DNA from: Archangium sp.
GTDB taxonomy: Bacteria > Myxococcota > Myxococcia > Myxococcales > Myxococcaceae
Length of the DNA: 20,020 nucleotides
Direction of reading: 5' to 3'
Assembly (NCBI GenBank): GCA_031367385.1
Contig: JANLPS010000517.1
Location: 1-20,020, forward strand
Shown: positions 97 through 5,347 of the stretch, piece after piece
Layout: each line of letters opens with the position of its first letter
How positions within the stretch are numbered: position 1 is the stretch's first letter
Notes under the pieces: generated by a model
What the model saw: the letters and a program-made list of their open reading frames with translations, nothing else
Told to the model about the DNA's origin: nothing
Database searches by the model: none
Position numbers and translations under genes: made by a program

Positions 97-573
97 GTGG
101 CGACATTGCTGGGCGCTGCCAACCGCATCTTGCAGAACGCCGTGGGGTACGCGCGCATCGCGGCCGCCAACAACAGCGCTCCCGGAGTGCCCAATAACGC
201 CGAGGGCCGCCACGCCCCCGCGTGCATGGGCTGCCACTACGAAGGCCCCTACGCGCTCGACCCCTTGGCCCGGGTGCTGCCTCGCAAGCACGTCGACGCG
301 AACGGTGGAGTCACCTTTCTGCCTGCTCCAGGGACGCCTGAGAAGATGCTCAACACCACCATCTCGTCGCAGCGGCAGCTCATCGAGACTTTGGTCGACT
401 CAGAGGCCTTTCGCTTCGCCAGCTGCCGGTTGGCCTTCAAGTTCGTCTACGGCCGCGAGGAGTACGCCTGCGAAGCGCCGCTCTTCGATCGCTGCGTCGA
501 CGTGTTCACCGAGACCGGCATGATGCAAGACGCGGTCAAGACGTTGGTGACCGACCCGGGGTTTTGCTGGTGA
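97..573 (+). CDS. C-terminal part of a CxxCH-containing protein (DUF1588/DUF1585-like partner of DUF1501 operons), probably 5'-truncated or frameshifted
   Basis: Contains the CMGCH motif and a Cys-rich helical C-terminus (FASCRLAFKFVYGR...LVTDPGFC). Its stop overlaps the next start (GTGA 570-573). The frame is closed upstream by TGA at 64-66 and no signal peptide is visible. Confidence 0.6.
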   Translation: MATLLGAANRILQNAVGYARIAAANNSAPGVPNNAEGRHAPACMGCHYEGPYALDPLARVLPRKHVDANGGVTFLPAPGTPEKMLNTTISSQRQLIETLVDSEAFRFASCRLAFKFVYGREEYACEAPLFDRCVDVFTETGMMQDAVKTLVTDPGFCW

Positions 574-1253
574 GCCCCCTGCGCGCCACACTCGGGCTGT
601 TGCTCTGCGCCTGCAGCGGCACGATTATGAGCCCGTCGCCGTCGGTGCCCGGAGAGCTCGCGGGCCCCGGCTCCGACCCCTCGCTCGACACGCCGATCAT
701 TCACTTGCCCGCGGCGGTGGCGTGCAATGGCGCCTCGGTAGGCCGCAGCTACCACGGGTTCGCGGGAGAAACCCTCGACGCCAACCGCCTGCCCCTCGGA
801 GGTGGGCAAGATCTCGCGCGGGTTCGCGATGGGTCAGATCTCGGTACGCAGTTCGGCGGCCGCAGCCTCGATCTCGCCAACGTGACCCGCAGCGACGCGC
901 AAGCCTTCGGCGTGGCTCCGTCGAATTGGTACGAGCCCGCGGAGGCCAGCTTCGCCACGGCCTACCGCGTGTACGCACTGGGCTTCGAGGGCTGCCTCAA
1001 AAAGCTCAAGAACCCTGCCAACTACCACCCCTTCGGCCACGCTGATTTCGCAAGCGCTCCGACGACGGAGTCGGCGACGAGGCAGTGTCAGAAGATGGGG
1101 CAGATCATGTGGTGGCGAGACATGACCCCCGAAGAGCTCGCGCCGTGCGTCGAATACGCCGAGGAGGTGCGCTCCCTCGAGCCCGTACCCCAGCGCCAAT
1201 GGGCCTACGTCTGCGCCGCGGTCGCCGGGTCGGCAGGCTTTCTCGTGTACTGA
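570..1253 (+). CDS. Cys-rich putative lipoprotein, hypothetical
   Basis: GTG at 570 overlaps the upstream TGA. N-terminus MSPLRATLGLLLCAC is lipobox-like and is followed by a Pro/Ser linker. C-terminus WAYVCAAVAGSAGFLVY resembles proteins encoded next to DUF1501 genes. Confidence 0.7.
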   Translation: MSPLRATLGLLLCACSGTIMSPSPSVPGELAGPGSDPSLDTPIIHLPAAVACNGASVGRSYHGFAGETLDANRLPLGGGQDLARVRDGSDLGTQFGGRSLDLANVTRSDAQAFGVAPSNWYEPAEASFATAYRVYALGFEGCLKKLKNPANYHPFGHADFASAPTTESATRQCQKMGQIMWWRDMTPEELAPCVEYAEEVRSLEPVPQRQWAYVCAAVAGSAGFLVY

Positions 1254-1268
1254 AAACAAAGAGCCATC

Positions 1269-2465
1269 ATGCGACTGAGCCGAAGACAGATAATGCGGAG
1301 TGCCCTTGGGCTCGCGGGAGCGTCGCTGGTGCCGGGTGCCGCGCTCGCCGCGCCGGCCGACAAGACCACCGTGGTGGTCGTCAACTTGCCAGGCGGGCTG
1401 CACTCGCTCTACGCCCAAGCCGACAGCTTCGTATCGAAGGGGTGGTACGGCTGCACGGGGTCGAACACCCTCGACGTCGGCAACGGAGTCGTCGTCGACT
1501 CCTCGACGTTCGGTACGCTGGGCGCGGCGACCCTCTCGCGCATGTGCAACCTCGGGGTCTGGCACGGCATCACCGCCCACGACCTCGCACAGACCTCGCT
1601 GATGGTCGACCCGACCGGTCAGAGCTACCCGCTGCAGTTGGCGCGGGCCATGGGTAGCGGCGCGGCGGTGGCGTGCGCCAACCTCAGTGACACCTTGGCG
1701 GGCCGGCACAAGCCGATCGGCACGACCAACATCTCCAAGCTGGCTGACTCGGGAGCGGTGCTGGCGGCGTTGGGGGTCAGCCCGAGCGATGAATTCACGC
1801 CAGATCGCGCGGGGGCGATGGCTGGGCTGAAGGCCTCGCTGCGCATGTCGGCGCCCCTGCTCGCCAAGAACCAACGCTCGCTCGAGTCGGTGCAGGGCGG
1901 TCTGAACGGCGTCATTCGCGCGCTCAACAGCCCTCCGGTGGCGATTGACTGGCCAGCCGTCGCGGCGGCGTACGGGTTGAGTCCCGGCGATACGTTGCTC
2001 GGTGGGTTCGCGACCCAGTTCGCGGCCGCCGAGCTGTTGGTGCAGGCGGGCACCAATGTGGTGTTGGTCGGCGGCGGAGGCCCCTCATGCAGCTTGGGGT
2101 GGGACACGCACAGCGACAACAGCGGCGAGTGTGCCCGCTCGGGCATGGTCGACATCGTGCTTGGCCCGTTACGCACGTTCTTGTCACGCACCCTGGCAAT
2201 GCCCGGGCACAACGTGATCACCGTCATCACCGGAGACTTCACCCGCGCCTACGGGTCCGAACACGCGGGCAACCTGGTGGCGAGTGTGTGGGGGCCGAAG
2301 CTTCGAGGCGGTACCAGCGGCGCGTTCACGCCGACGGGCGCCTACAGCAGCTACGTGCCGGTGAATGGGCAGACGCCGGGCATCAAACAGATGTGGTCAT
2401 TTCTGGCGGCCGCAGCCGGGGCCGAGAGCAACCCCTTCGGCGAGAACCCACACCCCTTCGTGTGA
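1269..2465 (+). CDS. Tat-exported DUF1501-like protein
   Basis: Twin-arginine signal LSRRQIM...ALAA. Family-like motifs VVVNLPGG, GWDTH, ITGDFTR and a late EH. Confidence 0.75.
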   Translation: MRLSRRQIMRSALGLAGASLVPGAALAAPADKTTVVVVNLPGGLHSLYAQADSFVSKGWYGCTGSNTLDVGNGVVVDSSTFGTLGAATLSRMCNLGVWHGITAHDLAQTSLMVDPTGQSYPLQLARAMGSGAAVACANLSDTLAGRHKPIGTTNISKLADSGAVLAALGVSPSDEFTPDRAGAMAGLKASLRMSAPLLAKNQRSLESVQGGLNGVIRALNSPPVAIDWPAVAAAYGLSPGDTLLGGFATQFAAAELLVQAGTNVVLVGGGGPSCSLGWDTHSDNSGECARSGMVDIVLGPLRTFLSRTLAMPGHNVITVITGDFTRAYGSEHAGNLVASVWGPKLRGGTSGAFTPTGAYSSYVPVNGQTPGIKQMWSFLAAAAGAESNPFGENPHPFV

Positions 2466-2466
2466 G

Positions 2467-2991
2467 CTACGAGCTGGGGCGGCGATTGCCTTTGGGGACT
2501 GTGTCGCTCGTGTACATGCCGGGTCTGGTCGCCGCTGACTTCGCCCAGCCCTCCTTGTTCGCGAAGGTCTTGAAATCGACCGGCGAAACATGCTCGAGCG
2601 CAGACCCGGTCTTGAGCTCGTAGGCGCCAGCGGCGAGCGACAACAGCGCCTCGAAGTCTGCGTCTTTCTGCATCTCGGTCGGTTGGCTCACCACGCTGTC
2701 GTAGTGCGCGATGCATCCTCCGACGGCGAAGCAGCGGGCATACAGAAAGGCATCGGCCGACAAGTACTGGTCACCATCGTCGGGGTCGAAGTCTGAAAAG
2801 GCCTGCCGGGCGTGCTCACGCGTGTCGATGGCGTGCAGTTTTTCTGCGAGCACATCTGCGAACTCGCAGATGTCGGCTAGTGATCTCGCCGCGAGCGCCT
2901 TCAATGCGGGCTTGAGCACCGCCTCATCGTCGCCAGCCTTCTTCCAATTCAGCTTGGCGATGATCTGCCAGAACTTCTCTTCACAGGTCAT
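2467..2991 (-). CDS. DUF4240 domain protein
   Basis: EEKFWQII N-terminus, LSADAFLYARC and FEALLSLA..AYE motifs match DUF4240 as I recall it. ATG at 2991 has GAGG upstream and is preferred over the start at 3048. Confidence 0.75.
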   Translation of the reverse strand: MTCEEKFWQIIAKLNWKKAGDDEAVLKPALKALAARSLADICEFADVLAEKLHAIDTREHARQAFSDFDPDDGDQYLSADAFLYARCFAVGGCIAHYDSVVSQPTEMQKDADFEALLSLAAGAYELKTGSALEHVSPVDFKTFANKEGWAKSAATRPGMYTSDTVPKGNRRPSS

Positions 2992-3054
2992 CACGCGCCT
3001 CGAAGGGGGGAAAGGTTGGACTGAGGGGCAGTGATACCTTGGTTTCACCTGCGT

Positions 3055-3320
3055 CGATCGGGCCCGATTCGGTGTTTCGGCGACTTCGAAATGGTCGAAT
3101 GTGCAATTTGGCCGGTGCTGAAGGCTTAAGTCGGTCTCAAACGGGGGTCATGACCATTTCGAAATGGTCGTGGGTACGCGTTGGCACGGCGCTTCATCGT
3201 TAAGTCGGTCTCAATAGGTGGGCACGGCCATTTCGAAATGATCGCGGAGCCAGTTGGCACGGCGCTTCATCGTCAAGTCGGTCACAAACGCTGGTCACAA
3301 CCATTTCGAAATTTCGAAAA
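3055..3320. repeat. Non-coding tandem array of about 4 imperfect 73-74 bp units, each with a palindromic (CCAT)TTCGAA(ATGG) core
   Basis: TTCGAA cores at 3085, 3158, 3232 and 3305 (spacing 73/74/73). T(T/C)AAGTCGGTC(T/A)CAA blocks at 3126, 3200 and 3273. Segments 3180-3214 and 3253-3287 match at 33 of 35 nt. Perfect 18-bp palindrome GACCATTTCGAAATGGTC at 3152-3169. Confidence 0.9.
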
Positions 3321-3463
3321 CGCGATTTCGAGCTCGAGTCCACGACGGGAGACTGCTCGATTTACGCGTCGTTCGGTATTCCGAGCGCTTACGTTGGCCT
3401 GACAGTTGAACAGAGGGTTCTCCACGAAGCGCAATCCTGCGCGATGCAAAATGGGAGTGCCCG

Positions 3464-4177
3464 ATGGCTGTTTTTCCGAAGACGTTTTTTTCGAAGTTGA
3501 CCTACGAGACGGTGATGCGGCTGTGCAACGACGAGTCGTCAGCCGTCAGTCGCATCGCGACCGAAGATGGAAAACCGCTCATGCACCGGCTCGACGCCAA
3601 GCAAGCCGATGCACTCGCCTTCGGCGCGAGAATGGAGAACGCGTTCGAGAAACGGGCGGAGGCGGGGGCCGCGCTTGACGTTTCTACTCGGAGGTTCGGC
3701 GGCGCAGTGAAGATGGCGCTCGCTTTGGGAAGAGCACTGGACCTTCTGAACTTCGACACCAAGTTCAAGAATGCCCTGTCTTCAATGGCCGAATCACTCA
3801 GCCCGCGCCTCGCGGAGCTCACCGAGCCGCCCGCCAAAGAGGTCAAACACTTCTTGGACACCACGGCCAAGGCCTATCGCCACGACACGGTGAAGTTCGC
3901 TGAGGCGTGCGAAATGGTGAAAGTGCTCGACGCGGAGTGGTTCGCCCTGTCGAAGGCGCTCACTCGATTGGTCCGCATGGCCAAGGTGCTCCAGGCGGCC
4001 GACGGCCTGAAGGTGAGTCGCCGAAAGCGAAAATCGAAGGTGGTCGCCACGACGCCGGATCCGGTGGTGACTCCGGAGACCCCGGTCGCGGCGATACTCG
4101 TGCTGATACCGACGCCGGCGGCCCCGGTTGCGCCGAATGCCGTGGGGGCGCCTGACCCCGTTGACGTGACGGGGTAG
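3464..4177 (+). CDS. Hypothetical, mostly alpha-helical protein with basic RRKRKSK patch and Pro/Thr/Val-rich tail
   Basis: 237-aa ORF with GGGAG just upstream of the ATG. Ala/Leu/Lys/Glu-rich. No family recognised. Confidence 0.7.
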   Translation: MAVFPKTFFSKLTYETVMRLCNDESSAVSRIATEDGKPLMHRLDAKQADALAFGARMENAFEKRAEAGAALDVSTRRFGGAVKMALALGRALDLLNFDTKFKNALSSMAESLSPRLAELTEPPAKEVKHFLDTTAKAYRHDTVKFAEACEMVKVLDAEWFALSKALTRLVRMAKVLQAADGLKVSRRKRKSKVVATTPDPVVTPETPVAAILVLIPTPAAPVAPNAVGAPDPVDVTG

Positions 4178-4258
4178 TGGCCGGGTCGTTCGACTTCGCT
4201 GGAGGACGAACGGAGAAAGCAGACTAGAGTTCGCCCCCTCGACTGGTTGAAGGGGCGA

Positions 4259-4801
4259 ATGGGCGAACTGACTTCGGTTGAAATCACGGGCGACCCGACG
4301 ATGCCGGCTGACCTGTGCTGCAATTGTGGGCGCAGTGACGACCTGGTTCACCCCACCGTCAGCCTTCGCCTGACCCGGTTCATGCTGATCGGGGGCCCGG
4401 AGTGGAGCTTGCCGGTGACGCTCCCGTTCTGTTCTGCATGTAGCGAGACCGCGCAACGGCCGGCCCCGAGTCGCGCCACCTACGTCTGGGCATGGCTGCT
4501 GTGGACGTGGCTGGTCTTCATGGCCTGCCTTCTCGCCGCGATGTGGGCCGAGAAACGCGTGACGCTCTTCATCACGCCCGCGCTCGCTGCGGCCGGAGTG
4601 ATCGCCGCTGCCGCCCTGTTCGCGTTCTACTCAGGGCGGAAGCCCAAGGCCGGCCAGTCGAGCTACTACCAACCGGTGCGCCTGCTGCACCTGCGGCAAA
4701 AGCTGCTCGGGCAGACCACTGGCATGGTGCTCGGGTTCACCAACGCCGCGTTCGCCACCCGCTTCGTGAGTCTCAATGACGGAGTGCCGCCACCCGGGTA
4801 A
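4259..4801 (+). CDS. Hypothetical membrane protein with two CxxC pairs (possible zinc ribbon) and two TM helices
   Basis: CCNC and PFCSAC motifs, then hydrophobic segments (YVWAWLLWTWLVFMACLLAAMW and FITPALAAAGVIAAAALFAFY). ATG at 4259 follows AAGGGG. Confidence 0.7.
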   Translation: MGELTSVEITGDPTMPADLCCNCGRSDDLVHPTVSLRLTRFMLIGGPEWSLPVTLPFCSACSETAQRPAPSRATYVWAWLLWTWLVFMACLLAAMWAEKRVTLFITPALAAAGVIAAAALFAFYSGRKPKAGQSSYYQPVRLLHLRQKLLGQTTGMVLGFTNAAFATRFVSLNDGVPPPG

Positions 4802-4867
4802 CTCCGGGGGGTCGTTGAGCTCAGTGCACAACCGGCAACCGCCAACCGCCACGGCCGATAATCCTGC

Positions 4868-5347
4868 ATGGTCGTAAAACGCACAACACAGGCGGTCGTC
4901 TCTCAGGCTTCGAGAAACTCCTTTGACGCACGTCGAACGGTGACGCTCGCCAAGGCCTCGCTGGCCACGGTCACGCAAGCGCTCAAGCCGCGGCAGGTGA
5001 CCGAATCACCCTGGGGCGCGTTCTTGTCTCCGGTCGAGGGTGCCGAGGTGTTGGGCATCGCGAAAAATTCGATTCAAAGCGTGCTCGACAGCGTGCCTGA
5101 AGGGCAGCGCGTACCGCCCAAAGCGCTCGAGGCGATTGAAGCGACGTTCGCGTTGCTCAAGTCGAACCTGCCGACCAACAGCAAGACGGGCGAGGTCGAG
5201 CCGCGCTTGTGCGAATTGGTCATGACGCTGATCTCGCCTGACAAAGATGGCCGCCGAGTGCGGGTCGACCCCGACGTGCAGAACGCTGAGAACCGTTCGA
5301 CCTACCTGGAGCTGAAGAATACGATCGCGGCGCTGCGCCGACGCTAG
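4868..5347 (+). CDS. Hypothetical protein
   Basis: 159-aa ORF filling the gap and converging on the next gene. GATAAT lies 5 nt before the ATG, suggesting a possible leaderless transcript. Confidence 0.6.
   Translation: MVVKRTTQAVVSQASRNSFDARRTVTLAKASLATVTQALKPRQVTESPWGAFLSPVEGAEVLGIAKNSIQSVLDSVPEGQRVPPKALEAIEATFALLKSNLPTNSKTGEVEPRLCELVMTLISPDKDGRRVRVDPDVQNAENRSTYLELKNTIAALRRR

Follow-up and report, generated by a model that had tools for sequence, protein, structure and literature searches.

The window, a stretch of 20,020 nucleotides from an Archangium sp. contig, contains a row of palindromic repeats in a non-coding region upstream of a gene for a predicted helical protein. The question raised by this locus is what the row does and whether it belongs with the gene. 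The initial annotation proposed an array-plus-protein module with CRISPR-like dimensions and an alternation of segments loosely reminiscent of TIGR arrays, acting either as a platform of DNA-binding sites or as an array of processed RNAs. In the reading favored here, to which a probability of about one half is assigned, the locus is one copy of a recurring cassette in which the array would function in its double-stranded DNA form, and the basic-tailed protein, predicted to be rod-shaped, would bind its own palindromes as a dimer. The array, the gene family, their linkage, the quantized spacing, the dyads, the gene-less kin and the variable flanks are observed, and comparison gives strong support to the DNA geometry; binding, dimerization, autoregulation and any role in mobility are inferred. 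The cassette is composed of phased dyads, a promoter-like motif, the helical-protein gene and a 3' hairpin, which are arranged in the window as follows.

3075-3320, no strand: phased array in non-coding DNA, with 73/74/73 bp spacing (seven helical turns) and about 3.4 units
3083-3092, no strand: dyad core 1, degenerate, ACTTCGAAAT
3156-3165, no strand: dyad core 2, ATTTCGAAAT, the dyad extending to 18 bp
3230-3239, no strand: dyad core 3
3303-3319, no strand: dyad core 4 (3303-3312) and an overlapping extra TTTCGAAA (3312-3319) that ends the array
3128-3283, plus strand: second constant box AAGTCGGTC at 3128, 3202 and 3275, 28 nt ahead of each core
3406-3411, plus strand: TTGAAC motif, 58 nt ahead of the start codon, putatively promoter-like
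3429-3442, plus strand: weak hairpin of 4 pairs, GCGC(AATCCT)GCGC, in the leader upstream of the ribosome-binding site
3464-4177, plus strand: gene for a 237-aa member of an unnamed protein family, predicted to form a long bundle of helices and carrying a K/R patch and a Pro/Ala tail
4019-4039, plus strand: RRKRKSK basic patch after a nearly invariant Gly181
4228-4269, plus strand: terminator-like hairpin 3' of the stop codon

A phased array upstream of a helical-protein gene

The 73/74/73 bp array was confirmed by several measures. Tandem Repeats Finder reported a period of 73 at 3126-3312 (2.5 copies, 81% matches, score 253) and 3.4 copies with laxer scoring, so that the initial count of about four fits the number of cores, the units themselves numbering about 3.4. 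The first letters of the TTCGAA cores are at 3085, 3158, 3232 and 3305, in steps of 73/74/73, and the lag score of the array was 103, against a maximum of 46 among 100 Markov resamples. The region is also of lower GC content, as had been seen (0.55 across 3201-3600 and approximately 0.65 in the rest of the window). The 37-nt blocks at 3106, 3180 and 3253 are present as claimed, with identities of 25/37, 25/37 and 33/37. The parts between them are interrelated, again in agreement with the initial annotation, sharing a common 12-nt core and 6-8 of 11-13 flanking bases. An accompanying proposal, that short variable segments alternate with constant blocks, was not borne out: the core-flanking parts described as variable are 46-64% alike (7/11 and 6-8/13 bases identical). 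Because the flanks of the core are mutually similar, the array is best described as one degenerate 73-bp unit and not as repeat plus spacer.

A CRISPR array was accordingly rejected as a candidate (blocks 25-33 of 37 identical, intervening parts related, no Cas1). Neither Cas1 (PF01867; the cas family searched) nor the Nop domain (PF01798, E<=0.1) was matched in the host genome (G000, 98% complete), and Nop was also absent from 24 family members; the initial annotation had recognized no cas or Nop-domain gene in the window. In TIGR-Tas systems the unit measures 36 nt and contains two short variable spacers set between UG...CCA repeats, as described in the available text of PMC12045711. Like TIGR-Tas and CRISPR arrays, the window array lies beside a small protein gene, and its unit can be divided into 37 + 36 nt. 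Unlike them it has no unique spacers, relatives have no 36-nt unit, and the stretch between CCA and TG is the invariant core. The CRISPR- or TIGR-sized reading is not supported: the 36/37 split is peculiar to the window copy, and units of relatives are 31-32 bp.

The 237-aa open reading frame with its RRKRKSK patch is present at 3464-4177, and its helical character is supported by prediction. Helices of the window protein were predicted at residues 11-29, 36-91, 105-117 and 122-179, and the basic patch is kept in 27/27 family members, with 3-7 K/R per 10 residues. In an AlphaFold model computed from 11 sequences (pLDDT 84, pTM 0.70), a long bundle of helices is followed by a basic tail that is disordered; the window protein is modeled as four helices, two of them of approximately 57 residues, with no short-helix head and no helix-turn-helix. 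Fold searches returned generic helical bundles alone, with no specific match (best Z 10.3), and the Nop fold was not among the matches listed. A Pfam scan of 24 family members gave no family common to more than two of them and no catalytic motif. In the window gene third-position G is 0.45, and G-avoidance at silent sites is absent.

Several apparent protein relationships were set aside. A PDB sequence match to a plant protein (E 5e-4 over 73 positions) was taken as coiled-coil noise. DUF6261 (PF19775) had no match in the host genome or in 24 family members, and the Atlas leads to it were weak (0.81 and 0.86, covering 16% and 32% of members). A possible link between Porphyromonas gingivalis hagB and 72/73-bp repeats found no confirmation in the literature searched, and DUF6261 was without match. 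In Atlas, one family member has unnamed clusters of 207-217 aa, for the most part from Bacteroidota, as neighbors (0.95-0.96), and the neighbors of the window protein are unnamed Myxococcota clusters (0.90-0.91); the recognition values are below the tool's threshold, and these placements serve as leads only.

Recurring features also lie between array and gene and after the gene. TTGAAY occurs at -53 to -63 in five of the six paralogues of the host genome and at -87 in the sixth (background 53/3389), and no sigma-70 consensus promoter was found in 2950-4300. A leader hairpin with a six-base loop at -60 to -31 was seen at 12/28 loci, a count without a control, and is stronger in relatives than in the window. 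The 3' hairpin reaches -20 kcal/mol or lower at 28/31 family loci versus 52/146 controls. Elsewhere in the host genome, C112:2906-2979 resembles, at 68% over 74 nt (E 0.027), the part of the window leader that surrounds TTGAACAG, and no family gene was detected there.

Distribution of the protein family and its linkage to arrays

Database searches returned few relatives (P0003, 53%; P0007, 44%; P0008; P0009): word-based protein searches gave 1-3 matches and a full scan gave four. No DNA loci of the window's own subclade (P0003, P0007) were found in metagenome or viral contigs. The host genome contains three further 73-bp arrays with the window's core, at C163, C364 and C367, of which the C364 array lies approximately 200 bp upstream of a paralogue 28% identical to the window protein. 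Relatives were traced by way of this array, which led to the paralogue and then to a profile, and the profile search of the host genome yielded six paralogues. Iterated profiles detected the family in 15/368 genomes of the class, namely the host and 14/207 others of the Myxococcaceae-type family, and in 0/160 genomes from other families of the class; with 7-8 candidates scored per genome, distant members may be missed in these counts. Among 401 genomes sampled over the phylum, the 10 with a family member all belong to the same family as the host, and the single same-genus genome has none (0/1). The description of the protein as an orphan is thereby corrected.

Searches with the DNA were less productive. 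A close second copy of the window's unit is absent from the host genome, a strict two-core pattern had matches in 0/60 relatives, and the C367 array DNA had matches in 0/207 family genomes. The array sequence is lineage-specific, so protein-anchored searches were the only ones that worked. A profile built from the C163, C364 and C367 arrays recovers the window cores only at E 1.6-8.6; those arrays carry AAGT in the same register as the AAGTCGGTC box, and kinship with the window array is weakly suggested by core, period, in-register AAGT and a BLAST E of 0.01.

Linkage was assessed at 32 family loci, 30 of which had at least 150 nt of upstream sequence. All lags of 18-135 were scanned (p<=0.01), and exclusion of three truncated genes and one second gene of a tandem pair left 26 first-in-line genes. 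A significant upstream array was found at 14 of these 26, and all 14 top lags were 30-32, 63 or 72-73 (lags scored as pairs d, d+1). Such a top lag was found in 8/561 upstream regions of other long open reading frames, at a looser threshold. The locus counts overstate independence because G221:C5, G223:C223, G228:C153 and L121 are close kin. In the host genome, 59,321 windows contained six non-triplet 73/74-bp loci, comprising three sequence types, and none at 31/32. A held-out set of six metagenome loci contained two new intact ones (L120 and L121), both with 31/32-bp arrays, L121 being close kin of a locus already counted; the remainder were one repeat of an array-less locus, one without upstream DNA and two interrupted array-less fragments. 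These results support the array-plus-protein module as such. The expectation that homologues consistently have upstream arrays held only in part, with six intact members lacking an array by lag score, TRF and dyad chain (G231:C57, G017:C54, G030:C14, G213:C194, G212:C144 and G223:C326).

One variant arrangement was seen at G078:C40:13814-15138 (L073/L049), where tandem family genes, 75% identical, lie behind a single 73-bp array.

Dyad spacing and the nature of the array

Sixty dyad-to-dyad distances from 15 arrays were 31 (14), 32 (29), 33 (1), 73 (8) and 74 (8) bp, with dyad anchors and search ranges hand-chosen from the lag scan and dyad chain results. The mean distances of 31.7 and 73.5 correspond to 3 x 10.57 and 7 x 10.50 bp per turn. 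Weaker arrays gave distances of 74; 73/73; 126 and 95; 31 and 42; and 32 (four times). Unit sequences are unrelated between clades, and the period is retained. On a midpoint-rooted protein tree of 30 rows, the period follows the clades: two groups have the 73/74 period, and a sister lineage of each belongs to the 31.5 class. The matched protein core remains at 187-205 aa whether the period is of 3 or of 7 turns. No scaling of period with protein length was seen, and the constant core makes protein length no simple ruler. Both the 3- and 7-turn spacing classes and the switching of period at constant protein length are new here.

Dyad centers are 0-3 nt across arrays, and dyad mismatches show no wobble bias (17 G-T versus 16 A-C, the 33 mismatches coming from related units and being non-independent). 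The window array folds better than shuffles on both strands, with z -3.2 on the plus strand and z -4.7 on the opposite strand. Quantized spacing, the lack of wobble bias and the similar folding of both strands together favor a function as double-stranded DNA. Because many relatives of the gene in other myxobacteria have palindrome rows that are unrelated in sequence yet spaced by three or seven turns, the array is likely a DNA landing strip, which the predicted rod-shaped protein would coat. The last dyad lies mostly 95-250 bp ahead of the start codon and does not overlap the TTGAAC motif.

Gene-less arrays and instability of the cassette

Three of the arrays in the host genome (C163, C367 and C265) have no family gene and are sequence kin of gene-linked ones. 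Those at C163 and C367 share 71-76% identity with the array at C364, and the C265 array is related to the C40 array. The genes that flank gene-less arrays are 42-57 bp apart in two relatives versus 1.0-1.3 kb in the host genome; each such host gap also contains an extra gene, and the empty sites of relatives thus differ by the array together with this gene. The initial annotation had named a dispersed REP- or MITE-like element unlinked to the gene as grounds for refutation, and the gene-less arrays agree with this to a degree, but they are few and related to gene-linked arrays. A REP/BIME or MITE in the sense of many dispersed copies was rejected, the window unit having no close second copy and only six arrays being present in the 59,321 windows.

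Truncated copies were also observed. At G231:C141 an array is fused to the last 34 codons and the 3' hairpin, and two further family copies lack the 5' half. The G221 and G223 cassettes, with 6 and 11 dyads, are 95% identical over a stretch that begins with the array and ends 200 bp beyond the gene, and they sit in unrelated flanks, with DruA versus HsdM as the array-side gene; G223:C223 and G228:C153 have the downstream gene in common. Array-side open reading frames at 6/15 loci were defense- or phage-like (HsdM (2), DruA, DUF5131, a Schlafen-group helicase and a PLD-like protein), in a neighbor scan that covered 44 of 69 extracted open reading frames and four from the host genome and has no background rate. 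A 151-nt contig in two runs of one study joins 3102 to 4414, omitting most of the array and the whole gene. With a depth of 2.3-2.6, 11 differences and 85% likeness, this joint may stem from another organism and is a weak hint only. At the C364 locus, mapped contigs revealed point variants as well as cross-mapping from the C367 array; an empty site was not seen.

In G221:C5 and G223:C223, duplicated 3' ends of the family gene (L051 and L109) are found downstream of the intact copies. In L123 and L124, short family-gene fragments are joined to one and the same unrelated stretch, which resembles a transposase remnant.

A proposed mechanism and its alternatives

In the favored reading, the predicted protein would bind its cognate dyads as a symmetric dimer by way of its basic tails. 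Whole-turn spacing would place all sites on one DNA face, and bound protein would consequently be aligned along that face, so that the rods could line, tile or bridge the array. The simplest output would be control of the cassette's own promoter, and gene-less sister arrays may be extra docking sites, possibly for bridging, or leftovers. Several observations count against this proposal. The lack of a helix-turn-helix or a specific fold match makes the reading of unrelated dyads hard to explain; the position of the last dyad, 95-250 bp away and clear of TTGAAC, is unlike a classical operator; protein length is no simple ruler for the period; and six intact members lack an array. An extended version is a geometry-coded system in which rod dimers tile their own palindromes at three- or seven-turn spacing in a paralogue-specific manner, and gene-less arrays are remote docking sites through which the chromosome would be looped or rearrangements seeded where defense-gene hotspots border other DNA; this version is doubtful.

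The absence of a DNA-binding fold in the model would be explained if the array were a DNA platform read by another factor, such as a regulator or nucleoid protein encoded elsewhere, with the helical gene as its regulated output. The independence of period from protein length and the persistence of gene-less arrays at three host sites are also in keeping with such a reader. It is nevertheless unlikely, since the dyads change with the protein clade, even between same-genome paralogues, which is hard for one shared reader, and the basic patch is conserved. Patchy presence (14/207 family genomes, 0/1 same-genus), the near-identical G221 and G223 cassettes in unrelated flanks, the defense- or phage-like neighbors, the truncated copies and the 3102-4414 joint could alternatively indicate a selfish or mobile cassette whose array is the end used in recombination or capture, comparable to the repeated transposase sites that border mobile elements. 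That explanation seems distinctly improbable given that 24 members show no catalytic motif or common Pfam match, that neither terminal inverted repeats nor target duplications were identified, that two of the cassettes share a downstream gene, and that the joint is a low-depth contig of possibly foreign origin.

The choice left by the initial annotation between a DNA platform and an RNA array was narrowed in favor of the platform by the whole-turn spacing and the 17 G-T versus 16 A-C mismatches. Transcription and processing of the array into repeated structured RNAs bound by the protein would account for the better-than-shuffled folding of the plus strand and for dyads that could form small hairpins, and transcription of 52-nt Bacillus repeats is reported in the available text of PMC8161180. 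We consider it very unlikely: the opposite strand folds equally well or better, wobble bias is lacking, both size classes of spacing fit the pitch of B-DNA, the promoter-like motif is downstream of the array, and an Rfam search of the window array found no family (best E 3.1). Neutral minisatellites arising by slippage in a long leader would be expected to vary in copy number, as do the near-identical cassettes with 6 and 11 dyads, and to be missing from some members. Two whole-turn periods with unrelated sequences would be unexpected of slippage, and other non-triplet repeats of the host genome are spread over many periods; this origin is largely refuted by the quantized spacing and is given hardly any credence.

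Comparison with known systems

Plasmid centromeres and iterons (F sopC, parC, Rep iterons) are rows of protein sites, often helix-phased, beside the gene of their reader, and by analogy the cassette would work most like such a centromere or an iterated operator. The cassette loci differ in lying among chromosomal genes, with up to six per genome, and no match to ParA, ParB, ParM or Rep was found in the family protein, seven window proteins or 48 neighbors. REP/BIME elements are intergenic repeat arrays with copies at several sites. In the BrickBuilt MITE of Porphyromonas gingivalis a single 23-nt unit is repeated 19 times and the ends are inverted repeats (PMC4596501, as far as its available text describes). 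The cassette resembles both in that its repeats form arrays between genes and occur without the gene at several sites, and differs from BrickBuilt in having two or three copies per sequence type and in that most arrays precede one gene family.

KfrA of plasmid RA3 is, like the window protein, a long alpha-helical protein with an iterated site beside its own gene (PMC7783346). According to that report KfrA is autoregulatory, its helix-turn-helix has been mapped to the N terminus, and the promoter is overlapped by five repeats of 9 bp. Unlike KfrA, the window protein has no such motif in its model, its basic patch is C-terminal, and its dyads are widely spaced and upstream of the promoter-like motif. 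Assignment to the KfrA type, in which a helix-turn-helix head is joined to a coiled-coil tail, is not supported.

Tandem repeats of constant size and variable sequence, of 20-21 and 52 nt, were described by Subirana and Messeguer in Bacillus and other bacteria (PMC8161180). In the available text, 20-21 nt is equated with two helical turns and a polymerizing protein is proposed on such repeats. With fixed unit length, free sequence and non-coding position, the arrays studied here fall within that description; they differ in their periods of 31-32 and 73-74 bp, the dyad in the unit and the tie to one gene family, a tie that the available text of PMC8161180 does not report. No mention of Myxococcus was found in the available text of PMC6749651. 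The pairing of an array with a helical protein was not found described in the open-access literature, although the repeat tables of PMC8161180 and PMC6749651 could list such repeats, and the cassette is apparently undescribed. According to the available text of PMC8161180, constant-length, sequence-free bacterial repeats are so far unexplained, the polymerizing protein being merely postulated, and the cassette supplies a candidate for it. Six same-genome paralogues with different dyads, two spacing classes at constant protein length and gene-less sister arrays form a natural test panel. If cognate binding is true, the family would represent a new type of small DNA-binding protein without a recognizable reading head, and would provide orthogonal protein-site pairs and a possible organizer of variable defense loci.

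Neighboring genes and other repeats

The first three genes of the window (97-2465; L078 and L027) form a block that in G012 lies between ligD and a ThiF-family gene. In G078 an array-plus-gene cassette occupies that ligD/ThiF-family block junction, which suggests an insertion hotspot. In run X4 a related strain carries other DNA beyond 2465; the flank on this side therefore varies within the population. A DUF4240 gene at 2467-2991 on the minus strand is divergent from the cassette. Downstream, at 4259-5347, are two hypothetical genes with no Pfam match above cut-off and third-position GC slightly below that of core genes. Transfer RNA genes adjoin the cassette at 2/29 loci, with tRNA-Asp and tRNA-Val on the array side at L064 (2597-2768) and tRNA-Met approximately 800 bp downstream at L052 (2876-2950).

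Other non-triplet arrays of the host genome are found at C524:7302-7773 (113 bp), C394:7893-8192 (119), C413:12929-13257 (127) and C102:1682-1882 (98). The 113-bp unit at C524 holds CTTGAACA, and the 98-bp unit at C102 holds a AAAAGACCCCGTTTG motif resembling the C253 dyad. Several 38-52-bp arrays with CTCACCATGAG / GGTTCGACAGGCTCAC-like motifs, at C56, C269, C301, C447 and C520, are a second dispersed repeat family of this genome.
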